Of a stretch of 64,000 bases of DNA, positions 11,221-50,394 are shown in pieces; the stretch's first letter is position 1, and each line of letters opens with the position of its first letter. The notes beneath the pieces are model-generated. The model did no database searches, was not told where the DNA came from, and saw only the letters and a list, made by a program, of their open reading frames with translations. The position numbers and the translations under genes are program-made. The DNA comes from Azolla caroliniana. Taxonomy: Eukaryota > Plantae > Polypodiophyta. The stretch is from the NCBI GenBank assembly GCA_043228905.1, contig JBHGNT010000013.1, forward strand, positions 5,766,001 to 5,830,000, given 5' to 3'.

Positions 11221-13371
11221 TGTCGTGAAGTACAAAAGCTTTACATTAAAAGTCTACAATAAGATAAATACGTAACTAAAATAACATTTAATCATGTTTT
11301 ATATATAAAGATAATATTAACAACACATATGATAATATTATATATATGTAAAGAAAAATAATATATATATATATAGATAAATATATTATATTACACGAAC
11401 AAGAGAGGACTTAAACCAATAATCCCACCCTATGTAAATTTTTGTATGTAAATTTTTGTTAGAAGATGTAATATGTCGTTACGGGTGTGTTGGTAAAATA
11501 ATTGCAGATAGAGGAGAACTCGACTCTGATGAAGCTAGAGAATTCTTCAGCCGAATAGGGGTCAAATTATCACTTACAACTGCGTATAATCCAAAAGCCA
11601 ATGGAAAGATTGAAAGAGGACATAGCCCAATAGTTAAGGCGATCGCGAAAAGCTGTAAAGGTAAAATAAGAGATTGGCCACACATGCTACCTTATGCACT
11701 ATGGGCAGATCGAACAACTCATAGTTCAGTAACAGGATACATGCCAGCTAAATTGATACTTGGCCAAAAGCCCATCATGCCGATAGAAGAATCAATTATG
11801 TCATGGATATCTATTCCATGGAGAGAAGAGGTGAGTAGAGAAGAATTACTTGCTTTGCGAATTCAACAATTAGAGCGTCGACCTGAAGATATAGAAATAG
11901 CAGCCCAACGATTGAAGGAGGCTCGACTAAAGAATAAAATCCGTTTTGATAAAAGTCATAGAATTCGACCTAAGAAAATAGAAGAAGGAGATTGGGTGCT
12001 CGTGTGTGATAGCAGTTTAGATAATCAACATAGCACCGTCCGCAAGTTCGCTGAAAGATGGTTTGGGCCTTATATAGTAAGAAAAGTATATGATAACTTT
12101 ACTTATAAGCTTAGTGAATTGGATGGGACACTAATCCTAAACGTGGTAGCTGGAAAGAGGATAAAAGTATTTAAGAAAAGGTTTGAGCTTGAACCTCCTC
12201 CAATAGATCAACATGAAGATGAAAGATAGTGGCACATGCCGGAGGATGTGCAAGTCTAGAGGGGGTGGATGTCGTGAAGTACGAAAGCTTCACATTAAAA
12301 GTCTACAATAAGATAAATACGTAACTAAAATAACATTTAATCATGTTTTATATATAAAGATAATATTAACAACACATATGATAATATTATATATATGTAA
12401 AGAAAAATAATATATATATATATATAGATAAATATATTATATTACACGAACAAGAGAGGACTTGAACCAATAATCCCACCCTATGACTCTCAAATCTTAC
12501 CATTTATTCTATACTAGTAATATACATAAAATAAAGCATACTTTATATATACTTTATATTACATAAAGGACTTGCTTCATGATATAAAAATAAAGTTGTA
12601 TGTTGTATTCAATAGTATTTTGAGACTTGAACCCACAACCTCATACACTAAAGTCAACACACCTACCATTAGGCTAGGCCCTTTCTCTTTAAGATTATGT
12701 TTTCATGTTTATTGTTATTGCATATATTGTTTCATACATAAAAGCTCAAATGAGCGAGATGTTTATCATGCATCACATGCATTTCATGCACTACATGCAT
12801 GACTTGTACCCTCCAATGCACCATATGCATGGGGGCACCTATTCAAATGGTGAAAGAGAAGATCAAAAGGAGATATGTATGAGATATCAATCAAATATTT
12901 ATTACATAAGAGATACCATAAAATAGAGAGAGAAAGGAAGAAGTTCAACATAAAGGTGGAGCTCTAACTTGGCGGTCGTGGTGGTCAACTCTCAACAAGA
13001 GGGAGGTGGTTCGAGCCTTACCTTCATCAAAATATTGAAGTGAAGATTGTAGTGTTCTATGATCAAGAAAGAGAAGAGTGATTACCTTGCAAGACAAAGT
13101 TCGGAGGTTCAACGACGTGCACAATCATTTTGTAACTCTTTCATGAAAATGATTATAAATTTCATACACTTTCTCATATATTATTTTATATCTTATCTTG
13201 TCTTATCTTATATTCCTTAAAAATCCTATTTTGTCATATCTTATTGATCTCTATTCACTCTATCTCTACTCTTTCGTCTCTTCCGTCCATAATCCCAGTG
13301 ATTCCTTCCTCACTTTCACGTTATCCTTTGTGTGCACAACGCTACGCTTCTAGGCGAGTCACGTCACAACA
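11221..13371 (+). mobile_element. Internally deleted Phygy-type Gypsy: 5' LTR stub, integrase C-terminus, full 3' LTR
   Basis: 11221-11434 repeats 12270-12485. Integrase ORF 11456-12229. PPT GAGGGGGTGGA. The 3' LTR ends TCACAACA. Flanks are ACGG and ACAG. Confidence 0.85.
11456..12229 (+). pseudogene. Gypsy integrase C-terminal half
   Basis: IIADRGE, NGKIERGH and WFGPY motifs. Confidence 0.9.
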
Positions 13372-14921
13372 ACAGGAGGTATCCCACTAAGTATTACGCT
13401 ACAACGGTACCATTCGTTGCAACACAGTCACTTTGAGGTCTAGGTCGAAGGACTAACTGTTGATCGTGTTCCTAATCGGTAACAAAACCTAAGGGTGTTT
13501 GAATGTCGTACCGAAGGATCAGAGGTCAAAACCTGATAGTAACTCAAAAGCATGCATATTCATGGGATACCCGGAATATGAGTTTGGCTATAGGCTATGG
13601 AACCTAGTTGACAAGAAGGTGGTGAGGAATCGGGATGTAGTCTTCCTAGAAGACAAGACTATTGCGGACTGGAAGAAACAGAAGTTGGAATTGACTGTCA
13701 AGTCAACCCCGACAGCCAATCGGTACAATTGAATCCGAGTCGGTCAACTCGAAGAGACCAACTGACTGTTTGTTTGAATCGGCAAAGCTACTAAGGTCGA
13801 TAAAGGAATATGAATTGGAGTCATCCAACCTGGAGATGTTGATTGACATACATGAACCCAACCCGAGAAAGGAGTTGTCAGAGACATCCGAACAAGAGCC
13901 AACAACGAGTGGAAGGAGGTACCCACTCAAGGAAAGGAAATCCCAGACAACATATGCCAGTCAATACATCCTCTTGACTGACGAAGGTGAACGAGAGTGC
14001 TATGATGAAGCCATTGCCGATGATTACAAAGAGAAATGGTTGAGCGCGATATAAGATGAAATGGCCTTCTTGCATGAAAACTACACCTATGACCTAGTAG
14101 AGTTGTAGAAAGGTAAGAGAGCACTCAGGAATAAGTGGGTCTACAAGGTGAAGACTAGAGAAGCCAACAACATGCCTAGGTATAAAGCCTGTATAGTGGT
14201 TAAGGGGTTTCAGCAAAAAAAGGGCGTCGACTTCGACGAGATATTCGCACCAGTCGTGAAGATCACGTCCATCCAAACTATTCTGAGCATAGCTGCCAAC
14301 ATGGATCTGGAGATCAAATAGTTGGATCTCAAGACAACATTCTTTCACGATCTAGATGAAGAAATCTACATACAACAGCCTGAAGGCTTTGTGGAGAAAG
14401 GGAAAGAGAATCTAGTGTGTCGACTGAAGAAAAGCTTGTGTGGATTGAAACAAGCTCCACACCAATAGTACAAGAAGTTTGAATCCTTCACGATGGAACA
14501 TGGGTTCCAGAAAACACAAGTTGGTCATTGTGTGTCTATCAAAAGGTACGACAAATAAGACTTCTTGATTCTCTTGTAATATGTGGATGACATGTTGATA
14601 GTCGATCAAGACACAAGAAAGATTGGTAGCTTGAAGAAAGCTCTAGGCAAGTCATTTGCCATGAAAGATCTTGGACCAACCAAACAGATTTTTGGGATGC
14701 ACATAGTTCGAGACAGAATTGAGAAAGTGATAGGGTTGTTACAAGAGAGATATTTTACTAAAGTCCTTAAAAGATTCAACATGTTGGACGAAAGTCGGTA
14801 AGCTCGGTATTGCCAACAAACAACAAATTGAATGCTAAGCAATGCCCGAGAAGAGAGAAGGAAAAGGCCGAGATGAGGGCAGTATCATATGCCTCGGCCG
14901 TCGGCAGTTTAATGTATGCTA

Positions 14922-15781
14922 TGACGGGAACTCAACGCTCCTTATGTCCAACGCTCGGCCGCAACCAAGATTCTTTTCATACAAAGAAAAACGGGAAACA
15001 AATGCACGCGACACAAAGGAGAGAAAGGGTACACAGAATGTTTACGTGGAAAAACCCAAAGAGGGAAAAACCACGGCAGCCCACAGGCTGCAAACTATCA
15101 CTATATTGGAATGTACAAACAGTGAGTTCACGGAGGCAACGACCTCGTGCTCACGATCTTCGCCACAGGCAACGGTTACAACAGAGGCAACGACCTCGTT
15201 CTCTCTCTCTCTCAACCTGTACACTGTTACACGCTCTCACTTCTTGCACCAACAAGAAAATGACAACCCTTACTAAAAGTTTGCCCTAAGTCATATTTAT
15301 ACTAATATGACTTTTTGGCTATTTACAAATATAGCCTCGATGGGCTCTCAGAAACATATTTACGAATATGTCTCTTCCTCCGATTCTCACCGGGTCTGCG
15401 TCATCCAGCTCTCCGTAGCTGGGTGCTCCTCATCCGGTTCTCACCGGGCCTGTATCATCCGGCTCTCCGTAGTCGGGTACTCCTCATCCGGTTCATACCG
15501 GGTCTGCACCATCCGGCTCTCCGTAGCCGGGTACTCCTCTTCCGGTTCTCACCGGGTCTGTACCATCCGGTTCTCCGTAACCGGGTACTCCTCTTCCGGT
15601 CTTCACCTGGCCTGTACCATCCGGTTCTCCGTAACCGGGTACTCCTCATCCGGTCTTCACCGGGCCTGTACCATCCGGCTCTCCGTAGCCGGGTCCACCT
15701 CATACGGATTCGGCCTCGGCCGAGTTTGTTCGTCGGCACTGTTCTTCTCCCTTCCCATCCGGAGGGACCTGTCTCCCAACA
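14922..15781 (-). mobile_element. Solo LTR inserted in the Copia RT
   Basis: TGACGGGA...TCCCAACA termini with a perfect 5-bp TSD TGCTA (14917-14921 and 15782-15786). Removing it restores SLMYAM-VCTRPD. Strand inferred from TATAAATA on the minus strand. Confidence 0.9.
15372..15696. repeat. Six 54-bp tandem repeats inside the solo LTR
   Basis: Six 18-codon units (SSSGSHRVCTIRLSVAGY-like) visible in the ORF track. Confidence 0.9.
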
Positions 15782-17066
15782 TGCTATGGTCTGCACGAGA
15801 CCAGACATAGCATTCGTTGTGGGAGCAGTGAGCCAATATATGAGTAATCCAATAAGAGAACATTGGGCAGCGGTGAAGTGGATACTCAGGTACTTGAAAG
15901 GCACCTCGCAAGTATGCCTTTGGTATGGTGTCGAAAAAACTATGTTGGAAAGTTTTACCGACTCGGACATGTCGGGGGACGCAGACTCAAGCCGATCCAC
16001 ATTAGGGTATGTGATGACCTATGTAGGGGGAGCAATGTCGTGGCAGTCAGATTGAAGAAGTTTGTAGCTTTGTCGACTACAGAGGCAAAGCATAAGGCAG
16101 CGGCGGAGGCCGACAAGGAGCTAATTTGGATGAAGAGTTTCCTGAACGAACTCGGGATGAAGCAAGAAGAATTCTTGCTCCACTATGATAATCAGAGTGC
16201 TATACATCTAGCCAAGAATGTTGTGTACCATTCTCAGGTTAAGCATATACAAAGAAGGTATCACTCATTGCGAGAGAATGTAGATGAAGGAGAGTTTACC
16301 CTGGTCAACATCCATACTGACAATAATGGATCGGACATGTTGACAAAGAACCTACCAATGGACAGACTTAGAGCTTGTTGACAAAAGATAGGGTTGACTG
16401 ACTTCCTCCCACAGGAGTGAAGGGGGAGTTTGTTGGCAATATGTTCTTCCAGTTGGAGGAGTCGACTGTTCGGGTTGAGAAGAGTCGATAGTCGAAGACA
16501 AGGATGAGCCGATTGTTCGGGCCGAGTAGAGCCGGTGGTCGAAGACAAGGAGGAGTCGATTGTTCGAGGAGAGTAGACAACTGAAGAGTCGACAGTAGAG
16601 AGTCGACTGATTAATTGTCGATTATTATTATAACTATAATAATACTACTAGCAATGTGTGGTAGGGGCTACACTTGTAAATACTCCATATGATGCATGAG
16701 TGTATATATATAGGGCAAATATAGAGATAGATGTGTGTGAGCATAGAACACATAGTAGTGCATGTGAAGCACGAGAGAGGAGAGGAGTGAACCATTGAAG
16801 AGCGGCGCCATAAATATGTGTGCAATAGCATACGCCAAGAGCCCTGTGTGGTTGATACACTCGACAAAAATAGTGTTGTAACCTCCTCCATTGTATATCC
16901 ATTGTATAATGAACCTCTATTCTTCCGTGGTCTTCTCCCGTTTTAGGGTTTCCATGTTAAAATCTGTGTGCACTGTTTTTCGTGTGTGTACTAAGTAGTA
17001 TATTTCAGTGCATTCCCTATCGTGGATTAAGGATTCGATTCGCAATAGGATAAAAAATTTTGACTC

Positions 17067-17420
17067 ATGTTTCCATAAGCTTTCGCATAACACTACATCA
17101 TTATTGTTTATTTGGATGGACCCTCACTCATTGTAGGACGAATCCTCCAAGTAAACAACCTTATTGTACCTCTTGACTTTATTTGCATTTGAAATTATAT
17201 TAATACATCAAAGCTCTATAGCTTTGAACTCTCAACAATTACCTAGTTTAGGTGCCAATGATCATATAATATTGATTGCATCATAGCCATGACATGATGG
17301 TAAGATAATGATGGATGTCTTCTAACAACAATGTGCATTGTTCCTCATACATTGCGCCATTTCTTGAACATCGTGTAGCCATGTATCTTTCTTGGACTTC
17401 TTCCCCAAAGAGGTTCGCCG
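17067..17420 (+). repeat. Direct repeat of about 350 bp, matching 24848-25203
   Basis: Both run from CATGTTTCCATAAGCTTTC to CAAAGAGGTTCRCCGT. Confidence 0.85.
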
Positions 17421-17586
17421 TTGTGGTCATCAAAAAAGTGTTATCGGTTTAGGGTTTGTTGATGATAATAATGTTGATGAAGATGGTAATGATGGGTGTG
17501 ATGACAACCATTGCAAGGTAGTGGTGGAGATTGATCAGCATTGTGGGGTGGGGGGTGGCACTTAGAATGGTGTAGGGTAAGCTAAT

Positions 17587-17621
<35 letters not shown>

Positions 17622-17817
17622 ATCTGTATTCTTCATTCATTACCCATAAGAGGGTTAAATAGTTACAATGAGGTTAGATTTATAAGGGTGCATGACCTGC
17701 ATGACCCTCAAGCCATCCATACACATCACCCACTCACACCCTTTCCTATTTGTCCACTAACACTCGGTTCACACTCATACTCACATACATTTCACATTGA
17801 CACAACACTATACTCTT

Positions 17818-18406
17818 TCACCCTCGGTCATCACAATAATAGTCGATGCCATGTGTTTGCGCCAACCCATTGGCCACCCGTCCGGCCTTGTACTTGTTGA
17901 TCGAGCTCTCAAAATTGTATTTCACCTTATACACCCACATGCATCCAATCAGCTTTACTCCTTTGGGGAGACCAACAAGGTCCCATGTCTCATTGTCAGC
18001 TAGAGGATGCATCTCTTCCTCCATAGCCGCTTTCCATTCGGCATCTTGTGCCGCCTCCGCGTAGCTCTTTGGCTCACATATCTTTGCCACTTTAGTCATG
18101 TACGGATATTAATGCGCCATGTACTCATGTACCCATACCTAATCACAGGGTTCTTCTAGCGAGATGATCGGCGCAACTTTTTGTTGGTCGTCTTCAAGGT
18201 TCTTGTTGGTCAATTCTGACCTCAACTTTGAAGGTTCGTCATCGCTCATGGCCCCATCGGATTCGGTTCTATCCAATGTTCCCATATTGGTGCCATATCC
18301 CAACATCTTCTTCTTCCTCTTCTCCTTGTGGGTAGGCTATCTCCTCGGCTTCATCCATAGGGATTGCATGGCTGAGTCCCCATCACTCGTTGGCTCCTCT
18401 AAGTAA
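17818..18406 (-). pseudogene. Copia fragment (integrase-RT linker and RT N-terminus), same family as E/F/G
   Basis: EPKSYAEAA..WKAAMEEEM..NETWDLV..WVYKVKYN. Confidence 0.85.
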
Positions 18407-18526
18407 GAGTATAGAGTTTGAGTCTTTGTTAGTACGATGTGAATTAAGGAGCACTTATTGCCCTTTTCCTTTTCGAAGAGAAAGAATAATAATAATGCAT
18501 TTGTAAATAATTACTTAGAGTAATTA

Positions 18527-18918
18527 TGTTAGGCGGAATAGACTAAATAGATGTGTGTTATGTGTGTGTGAAAGAGGAGAGAGGAGAGACACAAGATAGA
18601 TAAAAGATAAAAGACTCAAATGTATATTAACAAGGAGTAAAAAAACAAACTAGCAAACCAACATTTACAAAGGAAAGAGGAGAGTGCTTTATATTAAGTC
18701 ACCCTCTTACTACATTCTCTCTTTAAAACACCCACTCTCTCTCTCTAGCAACTTGGGGAATATGGAAACTGATTAGCTATGTGTCATATTGTATGATTCT
18801 AGGATACAAAGTTAAAGTTAGGAAGTAGTGGTGACCATTGACGTTTGAGTGTTTATACATTCACTATATAAGGTATGTTCACACCCTAAACTTAGATTGA
18901 GTTTAATTTTCAACAACA
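18527..18918 (-). mobile_element. Solo LTR-like copy related to the Copia G LTR
   Basis: Colinear similarity with 26565-27007 (ACACAAGATAGAT, GTGCTTTATA..GTCACCCTCT, GGGAATATGGAA). TSD not resolved. Confidence 0.7.
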
Positions 18919-19342: not shown

Positions 19343-19394
19343 TACATACATACATACATACATACATACATACATACATACATACATACATACA
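19343..19394. repeat. (TACA)n microsatellite
   Basis: Direct reading. Confidence 0.95.
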
Positions 19395-23410: not shown

Positions 23411-23460
<50 letters not shown>

Positions 23461-23490
23461 ATGCATCCAAATGTAAGGAGGGAGAATTAC

Positions 23491-23674: not shown

Positions 23675-23692
23675 TTTGTTTCTCACACACTA

Positions 23693-26137: not shown

Positions 26138-29100
26138 CATGTGCATAAAATGTACATCCATCAAACAAATGAATTGTAGGAACTCAATCATGTTAAAATG
26201 TATATGTCAATTTAGTAACTCTATTATCTTTTGTCACTTTTTCTTGGATTGGTTGAAAGGTCACACAATAGATGTATGGTCAAGCCAGTAGATGTTTTTT
26301 TGTATTATTTTATTGTTGGTTATACTCATTTAATGAGCAAGAAGAATCACATCTCTAGGTATTTCCTCCACCCACATGGGGCATGTACTAATGAATGTGG
26401 TACACTAATCATTATGAGTGTCTGTGGTTACCTAACAACAATTGATTAAGATAAATAAAAAAGTTGAGGGGTTCAATCACATTTGAATTCAATCTAAAAT
26501 GTCAATTTTGTGATGTATGAGAAACAATTTGTTTTTGTATTTGGAAAGAATCGGGTATGATTCTTGTGTAGCGGAAGCGATGTGTGTTGTGTGTATGTGT
26601 GTGAGGAAAGAGAGAGGAGAAGAGAAACACAAGATAGATTAGTTGAAGTGGAAAAGGAGTACTCAAGAAGAAGATGTATATTTCACAAGTAAAATATGAA
26701 TTACAAAATGTAGCATTACAAGGAGTCCCAAACGACTTAGTATGAATTAGGAGGAGGGTGCTTTATATAAGGTCACCCTCTCTCTTCATTAACTTATTAC
26801 AACTTCCACTCTCTCTCTAGAACCTTGAGGAATGTGAAGACTCATAGTTATCGGGAATATGGAACTCATTAGTTATGTGTCATAGAATATGATTCTATGA
26901 CACATAGTTTAATGTGTAGAGAGTGGTATGACTCTTGACCTTTGAGTGCACATAGATTCTCAAAGGTGTGTTCACATGTTGCTCTATGTTGAGTTTGATT
27001 CTTAACACGCCCCCTCAAGCTCAACTCGGGTCGGTTCCTTTGGATTGATGTTCGCTTCGGCTCGTATCCGGTTCGAACGATCTTCGGTGTCTGATTCGGC
27101 TCGTACCTGGTTCGGACGGTATTCGGTTCTTGATTGTACTCCCCCTCAAGCTTGGCAAGTCAAGGATTGTCATTCCAAGATCTGAAATGAATTCCCGAAC
27201 TTGTCGGCTCCTAGGGCTTTCGTGAAAATGTCAATCGTTTGAAGATTCGTGTTGATGTGTAGAAGGTCGACATCTCCGGTTGGAACACGCTCTCGAATGA
27301 AGTGATAGAGCACTTCGATATGTTTTGTGTGAGCGGGGAACACCGGGTTCCGAGCCAAATAAATATTGCTCATGTTGTCATAGTAAAGGGGAGTCAGATC
27401 CTTGATTGGAATGCCCAGATCCTTCAAAATCCTCTTGAACCATACGGCTTCCCATGCAGCTATGGCTGCACCCCTGTATTCCGCCTCCGTACTCGAAAGA
27501 GCAACGATAGGTTGCTTCTTGCTACTCCACAAAATCGCTATGCTGAGGGAGAAGAGGAATCCGGAGGTGGATCGTTGATCGGCTTTGTAGCCTGCCCAAT
27601 CCGCATTTGTGTACCCTTCGAGTCGTACTGGTGTGGCCGATTTGTAGAGAATGTCGTAATCCATTGTCCCGCTCACATATCGTAATACTCGCTTAGCACA
27701 ATCCAAGTGAATGTCTCATGGTTTTTGTATGAATTGGACGAGGGGGCCGACCGGATAGCTGAGGTTGGGTCGAGTGATTGTGAGATAGATGAGGCTCCTG
27801 ATCAGTTGTCAATACTAAGTCGGCTCACATTCTTCCACGCCGGAGTCAGTATCCAATTTGAGGTTTCAATCAAGAGGCGTAGCGATCGATTTGCACTCAG
27901 TCATCCCAAACTTGTATAATAAGTTGAGAATGTAGTGTCGTTGGGAGATCATAATGCTGGCCAGAAACCGAATTACTTCGATGCCTAGGAAGTAATAGAG
28001 CTTCGTCATGTCCGTCATTTTGAATTTGCTGGTGTCGTGAAGATCTGTCACTATGTGCAGATTGTGAGGCAGAACCACTGGGGTCCTGGACCGGAAGGAT
28101 TCGAAGTTTGCATTAGTTTAGCGAGAAAGTATTTAAGATAGATTGAAAGAGAGAGATTGATATGGTGAGAAAGAGATAGAGAGAGATTAAGATTGAACCC
28201 TTGACTTTAGACTTAAGAAACACGATACATTATCAATTGGATAAAGAATTTTCTTCTTATTAAATTCTTGAATAATACATAGCTCCTTTTATCTTTTTCA
28301 TCGACTCTTTTATAGATGCCCCCATGCATATGATGCGTGTGGGGGTACAAGACATGCATAAAATGCATGATGCATGTTTGCCATTTGGCGCTCATGCATG
28401 TGATGCATGATAACCATGTCACTCATTTAAGCTCTCATATAAGAATTTTTCAAGTAAAACTATAATGATAAAAATGTAACTTTAAGGAAATGACTTGGCT
28501 TAGTGGTAAGTATATTGCTTTCTATCTTGGAGGTGCAAGGTTCAAGTCTTACTTACATCTCTTTTAAAGCACAAAATACTATTAGGCTTTTGGACCAAAT
28601 ATCTTTAAAACACCATGCACCGCGATCAACCGACCCGACCGATCTGTCCGATTTGCATTCATTCGGTCTGGCCCGGTTAGGTCCGCATCCTGAGGTCACC
28701 GGATGTCGGTCACCAACCGGTCGCCGGATGTTGGATGCCGGTCACCGGTTGCTAGTTCCATCACCAGTCGGTCGCCGGTCGTCGTCGTCGCACTGTCTCC
28801 GTCCAAAACCAATGAAATATGCTACATCCATTTCTCAAGTCATTGAACTCATCCTTTCTATGCTTTAAAACACCATGCACCGCGATCAACCGATCCGTCC
28901 GATTTGCATCCGTTCGGTCTGGCCCGGTTCAGTCCGCATCCCGAGCCGGATGCCAGTAATCGGGTTTGCCAACATCGATCGGTCGCCGGTTGTCGCATCC
29001 CGAGCCAATTCGATTTGCATCCCGAGCCAATTCGGTCTGCATCCCGAGGTCACCGGACGTTGGATGCCGGTCACCGGTCACCGGCTGCCGGTTCCATCAC

Positions 29101-29597
29101 CGTCTCCCCGATGTCGTTCCGCTGTCTCTGTCCAAAACCAATGAAATTGGCCACATCCATTTGTCAAGTCATTGAACTCATCCTTTCTATGCTCCACACA
29201 TAAACACATAGATAATAACTTTTGCTTTGCCTTATATATGATGAGATCCTTATTTGTCATGTCTATGTGGGATATCTCACAATTTTATTTTTCTCTTTTT
29301 CTTTGCAAACTTCATACCCACATAACTTGACACTGAGATGTCCGTTTGTTATGTAGTAAAGGGCATTCAAAAGCTCTTCAAGACCTCCATCTTTTTGTAC
29401 CAAGATATTAAACTTATTTAAAATAGTATCTTCACTATTATTATTTTATATTTCGTGAGAAGAACCACACTCGATTTTATATGTTCCTCACAAGTTTCAC
29501 ACTATCACCGAAAATCTTCATGACATCCACCCCCACCAAACCGCACATCCTTCGGTACGTGCCAAGAAGAGAGAGTGCGAGATTTCGGCTACGGTGA

Positions 29598-33683: not shown

Positions 33684-35058
33684 TGTCGTGAAGAAAACCG
33701 TCCCTTAGCGCAATCGGTGTATAGCGCGCGCGAACCGGCTCTTCACGCGTGCGCGCCCTCTAATGTATATAATAAAGGATTAGGTACAAAGGTATATCCT
33801 AGGTAGTTAGATTCGGTAGGTAGGAAGTTAATGAGGGAAGCGGCTCCCTTCTTGAAGCCATAAAAGAGAGGGAGGCGCGGGGAGAAAGGGATCGGGCATT
33901 GAGGAGGACGAAGTGCTGTCGGACCGTAACCGAACGCTTCTCCTCTGTTCATTCTCCATCACTCTTCTCTACAGGATTTCGGGAGGCTCGTGCTGCTTCG
34001 AGGAACGCCCGTGTGCTTCCGGCAGCACCTCCATCCTATCCCCTTTCGTGCGCAGACGAGCAGTCATCGGCATCTGTTTGCCAGCGTGTTCGGTTGTAAC
34101 CGCTCGCGTGCTCTGTTGTTTTGTGTCATTTGTTAATATACAAACATTCGTGTCTCTCTGTCTCTGTGTCCATTAGTGTTTTCTGCGTTGACGGGCCGTG
34201 TCCTTGTGTTTCTTTGCTCATACGTAACCGGTCGTCTCTCTCTTTCTCTTTCCCCTCCTATCACCTGCTCTTCGGTTCAAGACCCCGGTGGTCCCGCCTC
34301 GTTTCTCCACGCACGCGCGTAGTAACGCTATCGTGCCTTTCGGCTCCGGATCGTTGCGTGAGTCGGGTGGGAACCACCGAGGTTTTGGACTAGGAGGAAG
34401 AGGAATACAACTTAAGGCTAGTTATGAATAGTAGAAAGAGAAGTAAGATAGCAATCTCGTGAATCCCACGAGTTTAGTGTATTTAAAACAATATTTAGAT
34501 TATAAGAGTAATTTAGATGGCAAAATTCGTGAATCCCAAGAATATATTAGATTGATCAATCCTTGTATATTAATCAACAACCTTATACATATTTCTCTCC
34601 TCCTTATATAAAGATGGAAGAGGCTAAGCATGGCTTCATGCTTTTTCACCAAAAGTGTCCATGCACACTAAATGTGCATGTGATGCTTTGTCATTTCCTA
34701 AGTATAGGGCTCAGGCTCATACACGCTAGATGTGCATGAGTCACTTTCAATGTCACGTGTAAATAAAATATTCACACCCTAAAGAATACATGATTTTTAC
34801 CTTTTAATAAAGGTATGTGTAAATAAAGGTCTTATACGTATTAAATCTATATATATAACACTAAAGATAAGTTATTACAATGGTAAAGTTGGGGTTTATC
34901 TATGTGGAGGTGCAGGGTTCGAATCCTGCCCTATGCATGTGATAAATATTTTGATATATTATCTACGTGGAGGTGCAGGTTTCGAATCCTGCCCTATGCA
35001 CGTGATAAATATTTTGATATATTATTTATTTATTTATATGTATCTAAAATCGGATACA

Positions 35059-38000
35059 TTATTTTATGGTTTTCACGTAGTGTGTGGAATACACTACGAC
35101 ACTCGCCCCCTCCAAACCCGCACATCCTCCGGTATGTGCCGAAGTTCTCGATTCCTCATATCCGTCTTCACCCAAAGCTTCCTCCGATTCTCCCCTTATG
35201 TTGACTATGAGTTGTAATTCACTTTCTTCGCTTCCCGCGTCACCGTGGTCTTCGTCCGATTGCTCCTCGTTGTCGGCCTTGGCTTGGATCACATAGGGTT
35301 TGTCGTCGGTCCACTTCTTGAAAATCTTCACCCGCTTCCCGTCTATAGGCACTCGTAGTATTGTTCCATCCAACTCGGACAGTCGGTACGTTCCGTTGTC
35401 GAAGACTTTCCGAACCTCGTATGGCCCGAACCACCTTTTCGCGAATTTCCGCATCGTTGTATGTTGATGGTCCAAACTACTGTCATAGAAGATCACCCAA
35501 TCTCCTTCTTCAATCCTCCTCGGTCGTAGTCGGTGCTTTGTGTCGAACCGGATTTTGTTCCGGAATTGTGCTTCTTGTTGTCGGCGTATTGCTTCCGCTA
35601 TGTCTGCCGGTCTTCCCTCTAGTTGTCGTATCCGGACCACTAGTAGTTCTTCCCGGCTCATCTATTCCTTCCACGGTAGCATTGTCCATGTTGCGATCGC
35701 GGTTTCCGTCGGCATTACCGGTGCTTGTCCGGTCATGAGTTCTGCCGGCATGTAACCGGTTACGGAGCTATGCGTCGTCCGATCCGCCCATAGTGCATAC
35801 GGAAGCATCTGCGGCCAGTCCTTCACCTTTCCATCGCATGCATTCGCAAGTGCTTTCACGATCGGACTATGTCCTCATTCGATTTTCCCGTTGGCCTCCG
35901 GATTGTATGCCGTTGTTAGTGTTAACCGAACTCCGTGTTTGGCGAAGAATCCCCTAGCTTTGTCCGAGTCGAGTTCTCCCCGGTCCGCAATCACTTGTCC
36001 TACGCACCCATACCTGCAAAATACTTCCTCCAAAAGAAATTGGCATACCGCGGAACACGTTTTCCTCTGAAGCGCTCGACCTTCTGCTTGATTCGTGAGA
36101 TCTTCCCGAGCTAATACCAAGTATTTCTTTTGTCCGATCCCGGTCGGCATGGCCACTATGTCGACCATCCACATGAAGTTGATTGTCGGTGAGAATGTCG
36201 GATGTAACTCATCTCGATGTCGAACCCCGGAGTAGACTTGACATTTCTCGCAGCTTTCCGTGAACTCCGCGACATCTTTGTACATTTTCTTCCACCAATA
36301 TTTTTGCTTGATCTTCACAAATGTTGCCCATGTTCCTCGGTGTCCAGCCCAATCGGATTTGTGAAACTCGGACATTATCCGGTTTCGTTGCTCTTTTGTC
36401 CCGACTACTCGAAGTGGTATACCATCCGGTCTTTTCGGCGCCCTCCATATTAATCCGTTTTCCAAGAAGAACTTTTGGACTTGTCTCTTCTTCCTTCGGA
36501 TCTCGGCTCTTCTTCCTTTATCGTTTGTTGAATCCTTGGCCTCTTGTAACATCTTTCCGATCATCAAGCTTTCTCCCTCGTATTCTTCTTCCCGGAATTC
36601 CCGGATTACGTTTACTCGGCATATGTGCTCCGACGTGAAGTAGTCTTCGGAAACTTCTTCATTATCCGATTCGGTTATGTTGTCTCCGAACCGAGCCCTT
36701 GATAACATATCCGCTACCGCGTTGTCCTTCCCCGAGATGTGTCGAACCTCCGGATTAAGCGACTTGACATATGCAACCCACCTTAGCATAGCTACATCCG
36801 GTATCGTACAACACCGCATCATCCCGAGTATCGGAAGACAATCCGTCTCGATCACCACTTCGGCTCCGATCAAATAATCCCGATCCGATTTTATCGCCGA
36901 CACGACTCCCCACAGTTCTCTTTTGACTTGCGCATATCCACGTTGCCTTTCGTTGAGAACCTTTGCTCCGAATCGGATCGGATACCGCGAACCATCCGAG
37001 TCGGCTTGATTGATGACCCATCCGATACCGGTTGGACTTGTATCAACCGTTACTATGATCGGTCGGTCATAGCTCGGCTTCTTAAGTGCTTCCGCCCTCC
37101 GAAGTGTCTTCTTCAATTTCTTCATGGCTTTGGTGTGTTCCGGTTTCCATTCGAATTTCTTACCTTTCCGCAACAAGTGGTAGAGCGGATCCGCTATATG
37201 TGCATAGTGCGGAATCCATATGTGATAGAATGCACATGCACCGAGAAACCTTCGGACTTCGGATGTTGAGTCGCATACTTCCTCCATAGCTTGAATCGCA
37301 TCGATCTTTGTTGGTGACGGTCTTCGGCCATAGGGCCCACATAGATGTCCGACCACCAATATTGCTTCTTGCCCGAATGCCGATTTCTCCCCGGAAAGTG
37401 TTAGGTGCACATCTTCTAGCTTTCGCAACACTTTCTCGCAATCATGAATATGGTCGACCACGAACTTTCGGCATCCCCGATCATCCATAGTCTCATCTTT
37501 TTCTTCTACCGCACATCCTTTCATCGGAATGTCATCGAGGAACAACATCGTTATCTCCGGAATGCAGTCTCGAAGCACCTTGTTCATCGCGTTCATCATA
37601 TGAGCAACCGAGTTTGTCGCTCCTTGTGGTAGTGTGCACATTCGGACTAATCCTATCGGTGTTCGCATGGTTGTGATGTCTCGGCTCTCCACGGCTAGTT
37701 GGAATTGGTCATACCCCGAGTATAGGTCTCCGATGGAGTATATTGCACGACCGGCAAAAGCTTCCGCAAATTCGTCCACTATCGGACCGACTCCCGAGTT
37801 CCGGATCGTGACCTTATTCACCGGTTGCAAGTCTTGGATAAATCGGAGTGACCCATTCTTCTTCGGAACCGTAAACCATCGATTTGAGTACGGAGCAATT
37901 GATGGCTCTAGAATCCCCATCGCCACCTTCTCCTTGAGCAAGTCAATGACTTTCGGAATATGCGCTCGTGGCACCGGAATCGGCTTCAGGTTCCACGGTA

Positions 38001-40733: not shown

Positions 40734-40750
40734 CTCCTTGCCACCCGGTT

Positions 40751-40768
40751 TTCACGTCGGGTTCACCA
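40751..40768 (-). promoter_or_regulatory. Primer binding site, tRNA-Trp
   Basis: TGGTGAACCCGACGTGAA, 4 nt after the 5' LTR, complementary to the plant tRNA-Trp 3' end (from memory). Confidence 0.8.
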
Positions 40769-41478
40769 ACTGTGTCGTGCCCTTCGGCTCCGGATCGTTG
40801 CGTGAGTCGGGTGGGAACCGCCGAGGTTTTTGACTAGGAGGAAGAGGAATACAACTTAAGGCTAGTTATGAATAGTGGAAAGAGAAGTAAGATAGCAACC
40901 TCGTGAATCCCACGAGTTTAGTGTAATTAAAACAATATTTAGATTATTAGAGCAATTAGATGGCAAAATTCGTGAATCCCACGAATGTATTAGATTGATC
41001 AATTTTTCTATATTAATCCACAACCTTATACATATTTCTCTCCTCCTTATATAAAGATGGAAGAGGCTAAGCATGGCTTCATGCCTTTTTTCACCTAAAG
41101 TGTCCATGCACACTAAATGTGCATGTGATGCTTTGTCATTTCCTAAATATAGGGCTCATGCACGCTAGATGTGCATGAGTCACTTTTAATGGCACGTGTA
41201 AATAAAATATTCACACTCTAAAGAATACATGATTTTTACCTTTTAATAAAGGTATGTGTAAATAAAGGTCTTATACGTATTAAATCTATATTTATAACAC
41301 TAAAGATAAGTTATTACAATGGTAAAGTTGGGGTTTATCTACGTGGAGGTGCATGGTCCGAATCTTGCCCTATGCACGTGGTAAATTCTTTTGATATATT
41401 ATTTATTTATCTATATGTATCTAAAATCGGATATATTATTTTATGGTTTTCACGTAGTGTGTGGAATACACTACGACA

Positions 41479-43483: not shown

Positions 43484-44191
43484 GTTTTCTTCAACCAGAA
43501 CCCAATTTTTGCGCATACCGGTGGATGCGCGGTTAGGTGGGGGCGGATGTCGTGAAGAAAACTGTCCCTTAGCGCAATCGGTGTATAGCGCGCGCGAACC
43601 GGCTCTTCACGCGTGCGCGCCCTCTAATGTATATAATAAAGGATTAGGTACAAAGGTATATCCTAGGTAGTTAGATTCGGTAGGTAGGAAGTTAATGAGG
43701 GAAGCGGCTCCCTTCTTGAAGCTATAAAAGAGAGGGAGGCGTGGGGAGAAAGGGATCGGGCATTGAGGAGGACGAAGTGCTGTCGGACCGTAACCGAACG
43801 CTTCTCCTCTGTTCATTCTCCATCGCTCTTCTCTACAGGATTTCGGGAGGCTCGCGCTGCTTCGAGGAACGCTCGTGTGCTTCCGGCAGCACCTCCATCC
43901 TATCCCCTTTCGTGCGCAGACGAGCAGGCATCGGCATTCTGTTGTTTTGTGTCATTTGTTAATATACAAACATTCGTGTCTCTCTGTCTCTGTGTCCATT
44001 TGTGTTTTCTGCGTTGACGGGCCGTGTCCCTGTGTTTCTTTGCTCATACGTAACCGGTCGTCTCTCTCTTTCTCTTTCCCCTCCTATCACCTGCTCTTCG
44101 GTTCAAGACCCTGGTGGTCCCGCCTCGTTTCTCCACGCACGCGCATAGTAACGCGACAGCGTTCCTCGAGAATCTTCTTCAGGTCTGTTGT

Positions 44192-45601
44192 CTACTCTAT
44201 GTCCAACCTTAGCTTATAGGTAGGCATAGTCCTTGTCTTTCGAGTGGGGTCTCCAACACCAATCTTCACGGGCTGAACCGTTTCCTTGACTCGTTTGCTC
44301 GACTCCGCTTTTCGGCTAGCATCTCCTTCCTCTATTTGTAAAGGTTGACTTGTTTCTGCATCTTCTTTCTTTTTCGTGTTCCTTGTTTCATGTCTCTTTG
44401 ATGGGCCTTGCTCTTCTATTCTTTTTCTCTTTTTTTCGAAGAACACCTCGTGGTTGTCGCACATCACTTCTGCAAGTATGGTGTTGTCATCCACTGGATC
44501 CAACCACCCGATTATGCTTTGCATGCTTCGGTCCGCAAGCTCTACCTCGTTCAATGTGACCTTTCCCTTCTTCTCATACTCAAGAACGAAAGACCAAAAC
44601 TTTGCTCCCACTTTCGCAGCTTCATTTTTGTCTTTCCCGACTCTTATTCCGGCCAACGCAACATAGTGCATCGCATCCACATGAGTCGCCTCGGCATCCT
44701 CCATAGCTTTCTTCATTCCCCCTCTTCCAAAATTCACTCGTAGGGGTCTCCTAGTCTCACTCGAGCAAATCATGTTGCCATCCATGTACACGATATTTTG
44801 TCGAATGGCATCTCGAAGGCTCGAACAATCTATTCTCATGTGGTCCATGCTATCGCACCACACGCATCTAAAGGGTTCTTTTCCTTTGGGACCTAAATGA
44901 TTCATCTTGGCTAGCATGACTATCTCAAACTTCTTTGCTAGTTCTTTAATGATGTCATTGTCAATCTTCTTTTCTTCTAGGTTACTTTGTTTGGGCGGCT
45001 CAACTACTTTTGGTTGTCTCGTTTTCTCCGTGACAGTTGATCCTGCCAAGTCGGTGTCATCAACCCATTGACGACGGTTGTCAGGCCTATTGCACGCTCG
45101 TTGCACCGCGATCTAGTCCGCTACAAGTCCATTTTCTTGGTTATCGTCTTCGAGAAGAGTCCCCAATTCTCGTCTATCCTTCATGTCCACAGCTTTCAAG
45201 AAGTATAAAGTCTTGTCCTCCTCAAGCAACACTTGGTCCGTATTTGGGAGACGACTAAACATCTGGTCGAATTCGTCGTACACCCTCGAGGCGCTCATCT
45301 TCTTATTGTTCTTCTCTATCCACTTCATGAGGGTATGTCGAGTCATCGTCGTCAAGTCTTCCGTCGCGAACTCCACTAATATCGCTTTCTCGAACTCAGA
45401 CCATGTTTTCTTACCTTCTTGAAGCTCGATGACACGTCTTTGGATGATGTTGGCGACCACTGTCTTGAAACTTGTGATTTTCCGCGCTTCAGACACATCC
45501 CTTTGATTTATCTCCCTTTTGTATGTGTCAAGGAACTTCGTAACGTTCCTTCCATCAAAGTGGCCCTTGAGCTCTACGACATGGTGGACAACCTTCTCCA
45601 C
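44192..45601 (-). pseudogene. Element A gag
   Basis: FDGRNVTKFL and CVWCDSMDHMRIDC. Homologous to element C Gag. Confidence 0.88.
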
Positions 45602-46382
45602 GCTCGCATCGTTGTCTCAAGATCTCATCATTTGTTCAATGATTATCATCATCCTTTCGAACTCTCCTGCTTGATTGCTTGAGGACGCCATCTCCAAGTA
45701 TCGATCGATCCTCGACTTGATCCTTCCTACCGCCTCTTCCACGTCGGGTTCTTCACTTAATTATGTTGTGAAGATCCGTCACTATGTGTGGATCGTGAGG
45801 CAGAATCACCGGGGTCCTGCATCGGAAGGATTAGAAGGTGTCATAACTAGACTCGAACCCATAACCTTTTGTTACACGGGTCGAGACTTTACCATTAGGT
45901 TATGAGTTGTAATTTGAAGGATATTATTTTCATTTAGGTTGTATTAGGAAATTGATGTATATTCCAGATTTCTCTGGAACATTCTAGAAACTTCAGGAGT
46001 ATTCCTGAAGACACTATAAAAGGAGGCGCAAGGCATTAGTTCGAACCAAATCGGTTCAACGCCAGTCTTAAGCCTTCTAACTACTGTTGTATATCTTCCG
46101 TCATATAATACATATATCTTTCGCATCATCATTCTCTCTCTCTCTCTCTCTCTCTCTCACTCACTCATTCCTTCTCTCAAAGTTCGACACCTCTCATAGT
46201 ACTAATCCTTCTCTGTCTTAGTACTATTCCCCAACAATAGTACTAATCCTTCTTTTAGTACTAATTCCTTCTCTGCCTTAATAGAGTTCCTGACAGTTTG
46301 AACCGATTTTCCTACTAGTCTCCCTCTTCCTTCTGTCTCTCTCCTTTCCTACTAGTCTCTTATTTCCCTTTTCCTTCATCCC

Positions 46383-47552
46383 ATGGCCACCGTTAGCGCT
46401 GAAGAGTATCAATCCGTTTTCTCGGAATTTCAATGCTTGAAAGAGAAGTTTCATGCTTTGGAACAAGAAAATCAACGCTTGTTGGGGGATCTTCAGCAAA
46501 TTTCCTTAGAAAAGCAGCAAACGCAACAACAGCATGGGGAACTTGCGTTACGCGTGCAACAACTCGAAGCAACCATCGTAGCAATGCAACAACAAGGGCA
46601 CGGAGCACAAGGGATTCATAAAGAACCCAAGATTGGCCTTCCCACGAAGTTCGATGGAACGCGATCGCAGTTTAGAGGGTTTCTTAACCAGGTACGGTTA
46701 GTTATTCAAATGCATCCGTCCCGATATCCCACCGATGCATCACGAGTGGGTTTAGTAGGCACGTTGTTAAATGGCTCAGCATTAGCATGGTTCGCTCCGC
46801 TACTAGAAAAGGAATCTCCAGTACTAAATAATTTTGAAGAATTCATAAGTGAGTTTAAAGCATGTTTTGGAGATACTGACAGCATAAGGACTGCAATCAA
46901 CAAAATCCGGCGATTACGCCAAGGTGACCGTCCAGCCTCCGCATATGCTGCAGATTTCCGCCTACTCGCCGCCGATATCCCCTGGGATGATCAAGCATTG
47001 ATGGAGCAGTTCCGCTATGGTCTACGCAACGATGTCAAGGATTTACTCTTGACTTTCCCTGAAGAGCCAAAATCATTAACAGAAGCAATCAGTCGAGCGG
47101 TCAGATGTGACAACCGCCTCTTCGAGCGACGTTCGGAACGACAATTTCAGATGCCGAGGGCAAGATCCGAGCCTACCTATGCCTCAGTGGTAGCGAAACC
47201 TTTTCAAAGGGAGTCACATAATGCGCCTCCAGTAAGTACTCCAACTCCAATGGAAATTGACACTACACGTCGTCGTGGGCCGCTATCGGAGGAGGAAAAG
47301 CAACGACGCCGAACAAACCGATTATGCCTTTATTGCGGTGGACCAGGGCATATCGCGATAAACTGTCCCCATAGACCAAGAAGGCAGGTAAACCAAGTCA
47401 TTGTTAGTTCTGACTATACTAAACCCGAGTCTATGTCAGTAGGAATCTCTGATAATCCTCATAGTCATAATAGTCCTAATAGTACTAATAGTCCGAATCT
47501 CGCAAACAAATTTGATGTCCTTAGCCAATTAGAAGAAGAGTTAAACGACTAA
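46383..47552 (+). CDS. Element D Gag (389 aa)
   Basis: N-terminal coiled coil, PTKFDG, LRQG, FRYGL, PMEID and CLYCGGPGHIAINC. Confidence 0.93.
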   Translation: MATVSAEEYQSVFSEFQCLKEKFHALEQENQRLLGDLQQISLEKQQTQQQHGELALRVQQLEATIVAMQQQGHGAQGIHKEPKIGLPTKFDGTRSQFRGFLNQVRLVIQMHPSRYPTDASRVGLVGTLLNGSALAWFAPLLEKESPVLNNFEEFISEFKACFGDTDSIRTAINKIRRLRQGDRPASAYAADFRLLAADIPWDDQALMEQFRYGLRNDVKDLLLTFPEEPKSLTEAISRAVRCDNRLFERRSERQFQMPRARSEPTYASVVAKPFQRESHNAPPVSTPTPMEIDTTRRRGPLSEEEKQRRRTNRLCLYCGGPGHIAINCPHRPRRQVNQVIVSSDYTKPESMSVGISDNPHSHNSPNSTNSPNLANKFDVLSQLEEELND

Positions 47553-48559
47553 GTCCAGCCAAAATAGGAGCCGTTTGGTTGGACAGCCCTAGATCTGTGC
47601 AGCCCATTAGTGGTTCCATTCCCTCTAAGCAAGTTAGTGATGTGTTCGTAGTCCAAGTAGCAGTTAGTACTAAAAGTACCCCTCCAGTACATACCTTAGC
47701 CCTTCTAGATTCCGGAGCTAATTCTTGCTTCATGGATAGGAATTTTGCCCGAGCTCATCAGATATCTCTCAGAAAGCTCCCATGTCCAGCCTCAGTAGTA
47801 GTCATTGATGGTCGTCCCATTGCTTCTGGTAATATCATAGAAGAGTCGGAACCCGTTAATATTGTCCTAGATAACTTAACATGTGTAGTATCATTTAATA
47901 TTATTAGTATTCCAGAACATCCCATAGTTTTAGGATTACCATGGTTCGAGTTACATGACCCAGACATAGATTGGAGGACAAGGGAAATCCGGTTGCGACA
48001 AACCCAAGGATCTACCCAGAAGGTTGCAACCATTTCGCTACGTCAGTTGCGTGAGGAAGGGCGCAAGGAGGAAATGTTTCTCTTTGCAATATCAGTACAA
48101 CCCTCCAGCACCACCAAAGAGGAGTCCACCGTTCAACTTCCCGAGAAGTATCGTCAGTATGCTGATGTGTTCGATAAAGTACAAGCCAACACACTTCCTC
48201 ATCATCGGCCGTACGACTGCGCCATCGACTTACAACCGGGAAAAGAGCCGCCATGGGGGCCGATCTACAATTTGTCACCAACCGAGCTAGAAGTCCTTCG
48301 AGCCTATATAGAGGAGAATTTGGAGAACGGTTTCATTCGGCATTCGAAATCTCCAGCCGGCGCACCCATTTTCTTCGTCAAGAAAAAAGATGGCTCGCTT
48401 CGACTCGTTGTAGATTACCGTGGCTTGAATAAGGTCACAGTAAGAAATAGGTATGCTCTTCCCCTTATCTCAAGTCTTTTAGAACGGATCAACGGTGCCA
48501 GGTTCTTCGTGAAGCCTATAACCTCGTACGGATCCGACCAGGAGATGAATGGAAGACCG
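47540..48559 (+). pseudogene. Element D pol: protease and truncated RT, in the -1 frame
   Basis: ALLDSGA, LPHHRPYDCAIDL, SPAGAPIFFVKKKDGSLRLVVDYRGLN, then joined directly to the 3' LTR. Confidence 0.92.
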
Positions 48560-50394
48560 AGACTCGAACCCATAACCTTTTGTTACACGGGTCGAGACTT
48601 TACCATTAGGTTATGAGTTGTAATTTGAAGGATATTATTTTCATTTAGGTTTTATTAGGAAATTGATGTATATTCCAGATTTCTCTGGAACATTCTAGAA
48701 ACTTCAGGAGTATTCCTGAAGACACTATAAAAGGAGGCGCAAGGCATTAGTTCGAACCAAATCGGTTCAACGCCAGTCTTAAGCCTTCTAACTACTGTTG
48801 TATATCTTCCGTCATATAATACATATATCTTTCGCATCATCATTCTCTCTCTCTCTCTCTCTCTCTCACTCACTCATTCCTTCTCTCAAAGTTCGACACC
48901 TCTCATAGTACTAATCCTTCTCTGTCTTAGTACTATTCCCCAACAATAGTACTAATCCTTCTTTTAGTACTAATTCCTTCTCTGCCTTAATAGAGTTCCT
49001 GACAGAAGGTTGCACTAGTTTAGCGAGAAAGTATTTAAGCTAGATTGAAAGAGAGAGATTGATATGGCGAGAGAGATAGAGAGAGAGAGATTAAGATTGA
49101 ACGCTTGACTTTAGACTTAAGAAACAAGATACACCATCAATTGGATAACAAATTTTCTTCTTATTAAATTCTTGAATAATACATAGCTCCGTTTATCTTT
49201 TCCATCCACTCTTTTATAGATGCCCCCATGCATATGATGCATATGGGAGTACAAGACATGCATAAAATGCATGATGCATGTTTGCCATTTGGAGCTCATG
49301 CGTTACATGTGATGCATGATAACCATGTCACTCATTTAAGCTCTCATATAAGAATTTTTCAAGTAAAACTATAATGATAAAAATGTAACTTTAAGGAAAT
49401 GACTTGGCTTAGTGGTAAGTATATTGCTTTCTATCTTGGAGGTGCAAGGTTCCAGTCTTACTTATATCCTTTTTAAAGCACAAAATACTATTAGGCTTTT
49501 GGACCAAATATCTTTAAAACACCATGCACCACGATCAACCGACCGGACAAATCTGTCCGATTTACATCCTGAGGTCGCCGGATGCCAGTAATCAGGTTTT
49601 CAGGTTTCCGATTCTGTCGTCGTATCCTGAGCCAGTTCGGTCCACATCCCAAGGTCGTCTGATGCATCCGGTCACTCGTCGCTCATCTCGATGACTCTGT
49701 TGTCATCTTGCCGACGTCATCCCGCCGTCTCCGTTCAAAACCAACGAAGTTGGCTACATCCATTCATCAAGTCATTCAACTTATCCTTTCTATGCTCCAC
49801 ACATAAACACAAAGGTAATGGCTTTTGCTTTGCCTTATATATGGTGAGATCCTTTTTTGTCCTGTCTATGTGGGATATCTCACAATTTTATTTTTCTCTT
49901 TTTCTTTGCAAACTTCATACCCACATAACTTGACACTTAAATGTTCGTTTGTTATGTAGTAAAGGGCATTCAAAAGCTCTTTAAGAACTCCATCTTTTTG
50001 TACCAAGATATTAAACTTATTTAAAATTGTATCTTCACTATTATTGTTTTATATTTCGTGAGAAAAATCACACTTGATTTTATATGTTCCTCACAAGTTT
50101 CACACTATCGCCGAAAATCTTCACGACACCGGAGAGGAGGGATTTGACCTTATTGATGTTGACTAGACTTTCACCTCTAATGACCAGATCATCCACGTAT
50201 AGAATGATGACAATTGGGCTTTTAGACTTGTTTCGTACAATTGGGCTTTTAGACTTGTCGGATTTCGACATTTGGAAGCCTATTTGATGAAAATATTGCG
50301 TAATCTTTGTAAAGGAATACAAGTGAGAAAGCATATGCGCAAGACATAGAGTATATTTCGAAAGTAAGACAGATAGGTAAAACACAAAAATGAA

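Follow-up and report, generated by a model that had tools for sequence, protein, structure and literature searches.

The window analysed here, 64,000 nucleotides (nt) of Azolla caroliniana (assembly GCA_043228905.1, contig JBHGNT010000013.1; G000:C13:5,766,001-5,830,000 in our numbering), is a nest of retrotransposons. Several Gypsy elements in it, from two lineages that appear to be the Phygy clade and a Tcn1-like chromovirus clade, carry in the U3 part of their long terminal repeats (LTRs) a module made of an A-box, a spacer of usually 32 nt and a B-box, the layout of a tRNA-type (type-2) RNA polymerase III (Pol III) promoter. The module is mostly antisense to its element and lies upstream of the TATA box of the RNA polymerase II (Pol II) promoter. 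Its pattern of conservation fits a Pol III promoter motif under selection and not a functional tRNA. The reading we favour, with a probability of about 0.45, is that the U3 module binds TFIIIC, positions TFIIIB beside the Pol II promoter and aids that promoter inside silenced blocks, as may be argued by analogy with TFIIIC-binding repeats elsewhere. The features on which the argument draws are listed below by position in the window.

12458..12510, minus strand: antisense module 2 of the LTR at 12270; spacer 31 nt, weaker A-box
12623..12676, minus strand: antisense module 1 of the plus-strand Phygy-type LTR at 12270-~13371
12965..13018, plus strand: sense module of the 12270 LTR; spacer 32 nt, 48 nt past a TATA-like CATAAAA at 12917
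28496..28549, plus strand: A-box/32-nt/B-box module, antisense, in the 3' LTR (28033-29525) of the minus-strand Phygy-type element A
33684..34328, plus strand: 5' LTR of element B, Phygy-type, from a clade lacking the module; internal negative control
34873..34926, plus strand: module, antisense, in the 3' LTR (34329-35101) of the minus-strand Phygy-type element C
41312..41365, plus strand: copy of the element C module in the 5' LTR of C (40773-41478); one B-box change
45849..45902, minus strand: antisense module in the 5' LTR (45839-46295) of the Tcn1-like element D, 10 nt in from that LTR's 5' end; D has the target site duplication (TSD) GAAGG
46015..46059, plus strand: predicted core promoter for Pol II in D, with TATAAAA at 46015 and a self-primer at 46048-46059 that is complementary to the primer binding site (PBS) at 46298-46309
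48560..48613, minus strand: copy of the element D module in the 3' LTR of D (48560-49004)
49405..49458, plus strand: copy of the element A module in the 5' LTR of A (45764-50128, interrupted by element D); one B-box change, at position 57

Modules in the window and across the genome

The four modules that the original prediction had read from this DNA, in elements A, C and D and in the LTR at 12270, are present at their coordinates and on their strands, and each is antisense to its own element. They stand far above chance. A relaxed scan of the window, with spacers of 25-45 nt allowed, gave 10 matches, nine with a spacer of 32 nt and one of 31 nt, and 9/10 lay inside LTRs, while 100 block-wise shuffles of the window gave 1.66 matches over all spacers and 0.05 at spacer 32. 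The same scan found no module in the LTRs of element B (from 33684 and 43548) or in a degraded LTR near 8575. The module at 12458-12510, the sense module at 12965-13018 and the copies at 41312 and 48560-48613 are additions to the earlier set. A spacer of constantly 32 nt and an invariant antisense orientation, both part of that prediction, hold as strong tendencies rather than rules: spacers are 31 nt at 12458-12510 and are fixed at 33-34 nt in some families, and sense copies exist, such as 12965-13018. Past the TATA box, a further module in sense is present in the 12270 family and in a second clade, and at one tandem locus a sense module stands before the TATA box.

The placement of the module upstream of the TATA box, likewise predicted, has independent support in D. 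There, the self-primer at 46048-46059 pairs with the PBS at 46298-46309, which puts the transcription start about 33 nt after the TATA box at 46015. This self-primer, with 12 nt of complementarity, lies within a small inverted repeat and includes GGTTCAA, which resembles a B-box. Element D has lost the first 10 nt of its 3' LTR and most of pol. The module of element A lies ~180 nt from the element's TATA box and is followed by a run of four T residues (T4) 12 nt past the B-box; a T4 run also occurs at ~13128, downstream of the sense module of the 12270 LTR. In the 3' LTR of C there is a partial tandem copy of the module's 3' half at ~34960-34989.

The tRNA-type geometry of the two boxes is borne out. 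The A-box matches TRGYNNARNGG, with 1-2 mismatches in some active Tcn1 families, and the B-box, GGTTCRANYC, begins at least 31 nt downstream of it. With a tight pattern, a search of 523 Mb of genome returned 1,686 matches whose spacer is 32 nt (control 0) and 247 whose spacer is shorter, ~94 of the 100 listed among the latter belonging to one 31-nt family (that of module 2 in the 12270 LTR); another 65 have longer spacers (control 4). When offsets were anchored on the B-box, the main peaks fell at 32 (42/100) and 33 (17/100), with side peaks at 24-25 (18 and 13), and reversed controls gave 0/39. The strict A-box/32-nt/B-box consensus has 3,744 genome sites against 0 in the control, some of them copies of tRNAs or of short interspersed elements (SINEs), and these sites matter for tRNA and SINE annotation. 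Host tRNA genes have A-to-B spacers of 31-33 nt, and 32 is the commonest spacer in yeast tRNA genes (PMC11724288); since it is the commonest tRNA-gene distance, the recurrent 32 nt is best regarded as inherited tRNA geometry. This genome also contains tRNA genes (Lys, Ile, Trp) in long tandem arrays, in which many copies have decayed (L061-L062, L078, G000:C8 ~17.80 Mb and C16 ~5.0 Mb).

Conservation of the boxes and of AGGT

Module contexts were collected at 202 sites and fell into 41 spacer clusters, of which 24 were labelled LTR-borne and one SINE; the other 16 were dropped as tRNA genes, chance matches or unassigned. Two features that had not been searched for recur among the 24 LTR representatives, namely a T directly after the A-box (23/24) and AGGT at tRNA positions 44-47 (A in 22, G in 24, G in 24 and T in 21). 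AGGT is also present at 3,235/3,744 strict genome sites. In yeast, TFIIIC touches G47, and both its binding and transcription are affected when positions +44 to +47 are changed (PMC11724288). The middle of the spacer behaves differently: in the same representatives it is no more alike than the flanks, with an identity of 0.34 among Phygy and 0.24 across lineages. Cloverleaf stems are at null level for the acceptor (2.6/7 vs 2.7) and the anticodon (3.5 vs 3.55), with a slight excess for the T-stem (p 0.004) and the D-stem (p 0.03). Because the boxes and AGGT are kept while the mid-spacer and cloverleaf have decayed, selection seems to act on a DNA promoter and not on a tRNA. A functional tRNA or known RNA family was rejected on three counts: ARAGORN reports 0 tRNAs in the window, Rfam gives no tRNA match there at E<=5, and the stem analysis is as described.

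The boxes are better kept than the spacer within families, between lineages and between taxa. Within four families, 83 copies were gathered by flank similarity only, and variants found in at least two copies (shared) were set against those found once. Shared variants exceed single ones in the free spacer (89:39) and in the downstream flank (108:92) and fall below them in the boxes (22:33) and in AGGT (1:9). Compared with the spacer, p is 2.6e-4 for the boxes and 3.2e-4 for AGGT, and both contrasts persist when C>T/G>A changes and near-duplicates are left out. Sequencing runs with matching sequence numbered 13, all as contigs and mostly with small shares, and related LTRs turn up in runs labelled as other organisms (7 runs over two stretches). 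Two metagenome relatives of the 12270 family, L311 and L312, keep the positions of all three modules, including the sense one, with boxes and AGGT identical at 110/132 positions and spacers at 90/142 (p 2e-4). In contigs from four other runs aligned to element C, changes fall at free positions and CpG, and none is listed at AGGT or GGTT.

Host lineages and history of the module

Between 28033 and 50128, element A (minus) contains B (plus), B contains C (minus), and D (plus) lies in the 5' LTR of A. The original prediction counted four LTR types, but three of them (A, C and 12270) belong to a single lineage of Phygy type, so that with D there are two lineages. Elements A, B and C and the 12270 LTR have a common polypurine tract (PPT), common ends and 4-bp TSDs of NCGN type (pairs CCGG/CCAG, GCGT/GCGT and ACGC/ACGC), their PBS matches tRNA-Trp wherever a leader is present, and the LTRs of A and 12270 are 67% identical over 280 nt; because of these shared marks, we treat A, C and 12270 as a single lineage. 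They have no chromodomain at the integrase end, and named relatives occur in Riccia. Phygy elements have been described as lacking a chromodomain and inserting at NCGN sites (Neumann et al., 2019, PMC6317226; Novikova et al., 2010, PMC2864245), and by these marks we infer that A, B, C and 12270 belong to this clade of non-chromovirus Ty3/gypsy elements of bryophytes. Tcn1 elements have a chromodomain and are predicted to be self-priming (PMC6317226). Element D is best described as a Tcn1-like chromovirus: it has itself lost the chromodomain region, while a relative in its family (L169) retains a Chromo domain (PF00385). As predicted, D is unrelated to the other carriers, the pol of Phygy and Tcn1 being 25% identical. 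The carriers encode gag-pol and are 5-7 kb long, with LTR-to-LTR lengths of ~5.3 kb in the D family and ~6.8 kb in the 12270 family (L170).

Several further observations concern these elements. LTR pair identities are 99.8% for D, 98.2% for B, 95.5% for C and 95.2% for A; C looks older than the enclosing B, and the 5' LTR of B joins B's own RNase H/integrase region after C. Phygy-type PBSs at 40745-40772 and 45735-45763 (both minus) are complementary to the 3' 18 nt of tRNA-Trp and start 3-8 nt past the LTR; the tRNA-Trp 3' pattern has 63 genome matches, many of them in tandem arrays. The stretch 11221-13371 is an internally deleted Phygy-type element in which 214 nt of 5' LTR are fused to the integrase end, followed by a full 3' LTR. 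Tandem repeats occur within element sequences at 9068-9376 (103 nt), 10282-11099 (~275 nt) and 15318-15749 (54 nt).

A census independent of the motif covered contiguous DNA totalling 1.264 Mb (a 464-kb stretch around the window plus four arbitrary 200-kb blocks), with 1.5-kb segments anchored at gag starts and pol ends, spacers of 31-34 nt and at most 2 mismatches. Antisense modules were found at 17/31 Phygy, 23/28 Tcn1, 0/8 distant chromovirus and 5/124 Copia segments, and sense modules at 6, 1, 0 and 3, respectively; reversed controls gave 0, and nested insertions may add matches to any class. In a sample anchored on the PPT, the module was present at 18/21 chromodomain-bearing Tcn1 loci (three of which are one tandem locus) and at 4/9 non-coding relatives. 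Among 77 metagenome loci, 24 had enough LTR to be scored and five carried the antisense module (0/15 with B-type starts and 5/9 of the others); Tcn1 relatives were absent from the viral contigs.

In an integrase tree of 22 rows, the module is found in four supported clades and is missing from the clade of B (7 rows) and from one old LTR. The tree requires 2 changes of module state vs 6.7 when states are shuffled, as read from a short alignment with a midpoint root and 10/19 inner branches open. Likeness of the sequences flanking the module is high between Phygy LTRs (mean z 5.97, 120 pairs) and near background between Phygy and Tcn1 (mean z 0.39, 80 pairs, 1% above 4). The simplest reading for Phygy is an ancestral gain followed by vertical descent and at least two losses. 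Since no flank homology links it to Phygy, the Tcn1 lineage likely gained its module separately. The idea that the module had been shared among LTR types by convergence or exchange is not supported: three of the four cases are due to vertical descent, and only Phygy and Tcn1 represent separate acquisitions. Four independent acquisitions are ruled out by the integrase tree and flank homology, and an exchange of LTRs between Phygy and Tcn1 was rejected for want of flank homology in the 80 pairs, a comparison that a very old or very short exchange would escape.

Non-coding derivatives were seen in both lineages. At one locus only (L278, L279 and L293; G000:C1 ~11.02-11.05 Mb), tandem copies of a Phygy-derived element have ~215 nt between a tRNA-Trp PBS and the PPT and a sense A-box/33-nt/B-box module 96 nt into the LTR, a layout like that of Helenus elements (see below). 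A set of non-coding Tcn1-like LTR families shares one PPT (L281, L289, L290, L295-L297, L299, L307, L308). Two of the non-coding Tcn1-like families, one retaining a 33-nt module and the other having lost the A-box, form a natural pair for comparing decay.

Possible functions of the module

Where a TATA box was found (14/21 lineages), the module lies 113-333 nt upstream of it. The module mostly points away from the genomic RNA and so cannot drive it. We propose that TFIIIC would bind both boxes and load TFIIIB between the boxes and the Pol II promoter, and that the occupied site would help to keep that promoter open inside silenced, nested blocks of retrotransposons. The local open-chromatin or barrier effect is suggested by analogy with extra-TFIIIC sites and TFIIIC-bound Alus. 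With each round, U3 is copied into both LTRs, so that the site would pass to all new copies. Selection would reach only those that later transpose, while dead copies decay. The occurrence of the module in tandem copies, at 113-333 nt from the TATA box and in a few cases in sense, is how a binding site could behave. With somewhat more reserve, we suggest a broader form of this proposal, in which autonomous Pol II-transcribed Gypsy elements may twice have built a portable TFIIIC/TFIIIB module into U3 to shield or activate the promoter they use, some families having a divergent pair on either side of the TATA box. Thousands of TFIIIC sites, far beyond the tRNA genes seen, would thereby have been seeded across the repeat blocks of the genome.

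Several results weigh against this proposal. The module is dispensable, since a large Phygy clade goes without it and 0/15 B-type metagenome LTRs have it. The sample anchored on the PPT had it in only 8/30 Phygy 3' LTRs, and it has been lost from 3/21 chromodomain-bearing Tcn1 loci and 5/9 of their non-coding relatives. The boxes do not differ clearly from the downstream flank in the flank-anchored test when all changes are counted (p 0.07-0.13), the upstream U3 flank of Tcn1 is as conserved as the A-box, and the A-box is deleted in some Tcn1 copies and decaying in one non-coding family. Genome-wide, the CpG of the B-box is CG at 2,046 sites, CA (tolerated) at 1,189 and TG (which destroys the B-box) at 1,108. 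A large excess of CA over TG had been predicted and failed to appear; because TG is as frequent as CA, most copies look methylated and unprotected. The family-majority state at this CpG is CG in 5, CA in 2 and TG in 0 of 7 clusters. Finally, a pure barrier needs the B-box only, so that the retention of the A-box, the bias towards antisense and the enrichment of T4 described next suit a transcribed unit equally well.

Such a unit would be a working Pol III gene producing a short (~90-120 nt) antisense RNA that diverges from the LTR promoter, with the RNA or its transcription tuning the element, either by activating it or by silencing it in a self-limiting way. This is compatible with the favoured reading, and on its own we consider it unlikely, if a serious contender. 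It draws on the retention of the A-box, which is required for TFIIIB placement (PMC11724288), together with tRNA spacing, on AT-rich DNA upstream of the modules and the strong orientation bias, and on a T4 within 40 nt of the B-box in 15/21 antisense lineages vs 38% in shuffles (0/200 as high), a lenient test because T runs are common in AT-rich DNA. However, neither sequence nor fold is conserved in the RNA that would result, CAA-type start motifs show no enrichment (CAA/CAC in 8/21 vs 5.2 expected, p 0.12), and the main Tcn1 family lacks a T4 within 150 nt, so that its transcript would leave the LTR. Selection could instead act on the sense genomic RNA, in which U3 would pair with a host tRNA at its D and T-psi-C arms, forming the other half of a split PBS like that of yeast Ty3 and helping priming, dimerisation or strand transfer. 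Antisense orientation and U3 position would both be accounted for, the bipartite PBS of Ty3 is a precedent (PMC5371799), and tRNA-Trp, the primer of Phygy, has the same 11+32 layout with AAGGT; with G-U pairs allowed, positions 8-11, 14-22, 44-47 and 53-58 are pairable in most of 13 Phygy modules. Nonetheless, the modules follow the promoter consensus where tRNA-Trp departs from it (T52, C13 and T59 matched in 0/13), T60 and C61 are kept in 13/13 although the PBS already uses both, and tRNA-Trp is the best duplex partner for 0/16 Phygy modules in a partial tRNA set of 17 anticodon labels. Moreover, families without the module have the same Trp PBS, the self-primed Tcn1 has the module, and sense copies with the same motif would be unable to pair. 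We therefore regard this explanation as improbable.

Slightly less credit still is due, in our judgement, to the suggestion that another (Pol II) factor is bound by the conserved letters, or that these form a landing site drawing in or diverting the integration of other elements, with the tRNA look a matter of ancestry only. U3 is an enhancer region, and the distance to the TATA box is steady within families (113-114 nt in Tcn1 representatives), but over 54 nt, spacing and positions 44-47 included, the pattern of conserved and free positions is that of the type-2 Pol III consensus, and in the window D inserted ~400 nt from the module of A and not at a Pol III start. The original prediction had named neutral SINE debris among the conditions under which it would fail, and a neutral relic of old tRNA-SINE insertions carried along in LTRs now looks very improbable. 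The genome does have a tRNA-SINE of the same geometry, with TSDs and an A-tail (L151-L154), many successful families lack the module, and the bulk of copies decay. Against this, boxes and AGGT outlast spacer and flanks at each of the three depths, the antisense bias is tied to Gypsy and not Copia, and the LTR modules are surrounded by no SINE body, A-rich tail or TSD. Their flanks and mid-spacers resemble the L151-L154 SINE at nothing beyond one upstream match of 10 of 13 positions, and as it otherwise shares motifs only, that SINE was also rejected as donor.

The origin of the module would be the capture of a tRNA or of the head of a tRNA-SINE, once per lineage. A donor tRNA was sought among 25 clusters and none gave a consistent mid-spacer match; four reached p<=0.05, each to different tRNAs, under a lenient null and with a partial tRNA set. 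The tRNA-SINE family itself (L151-L154, L033 and L034; e.g., G000:C1:1,649,980) is ~350-600 bp long, with an A-rich tail, long TSDs and an 11/32/AGGT layout; SINEs are little described in the moss literature available.

Comparison with known systems

Known already are tRNA-like boxes in the LTRs of non-autonomous elements; what appears new is such a module in the U3 of autonomous Gypsy elements, mostly in antisense, with a function proposed from sequence. The closest likeness is to the Helenus group of terminal-repeat retrotransposons in miniature, or TRIMs, and to TRIMp3, which also have tRNA-derived boxes in the LTR (Kojima, 2024, PMC10886601). Helenus elements are non-coding and 311-1,263 bp long, in contrast to the gag-pol elements with a TATA promoter described here, and their Pol III promoter is proposed to transcribe the element, whereas here it is mostly directed away from the genomic RNA. 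According to the same paper, part of a tRNA is present in "not a few" Repbase LTRs, which it leaves unanalysed. It also holds that autonomous partners have to rely on Pol II and that such LTR sequence is unlikely to be shared by them; its sole plant case of Helenus is Selaginella, and the words "antisense" and "moss" are absent from it. Cassandra and Ajax TRIMs likewise keep Pol III boxes from small-RNA genes in their LTRs (as summarised in PMC10886601). Unlike the present modules, theirs are 5S-derived (A, IE and C boxes) and borne by non-autonomous elements, and the Cassandra promoter makes the element's own RNA.

As a functional model, we look to extra-TFIIIC (ETC) sites and TFIIIC-bound SINEs, where B-box repeats recruit TFIIIC and affect nearby Pol II promoters (PMC11724288; PMC7014570). 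Those cases come from yeast and mammals and are described as benefiting the host, and ETC sites lack TFIIIB and Pol III. Here, unlike at ETC sites, the A-box and the spacing are kept, and selection apparently works via the retrotransposon's own replication. The bipartite PBS of Ty3 shares with the present modules a tRNA-complementary U3 in Gypsy RNA (PMC5371799), with the difference that the Ty3 U3 matches its primer tRNA while the modules here follow the promoter consensus and occur also in a self-primed lineage. The Phygy and Tcn1 literature, in the sections available (PMC6317226; PMC2864245), mentions no tRNA-like or Pol III sequence in LTRs. More generally, the full-text literature yielded no description of the module in the LTRs of autonomous moss Gypsy elements, though closed-access papers, Repbase and the supplements of PMC7466625 and PMC6317226 may hold one. 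Modules of this kind stand in the U3 of two unrelated Gypsy lineages. Outside these, HIV-1 has a similar tRNA-like stretch in U3-R.

Implications

If TFIIIC binds these modules, retrotransposons would possess an anti-silencing device of their own that derives from Pol III genes, contrary to what was expected of autonomous elements (PMC10886601). Should the RLG1 and RLG2 Gypsy elements of P. patens carry the module, it might also offer a testable reason for their expression in unstressed tissue (PMC7466625). The system could further give a handle on TFIIIC as a chromatin barrier in plants, with sister clades that have or lack the module serving as a built-in control.

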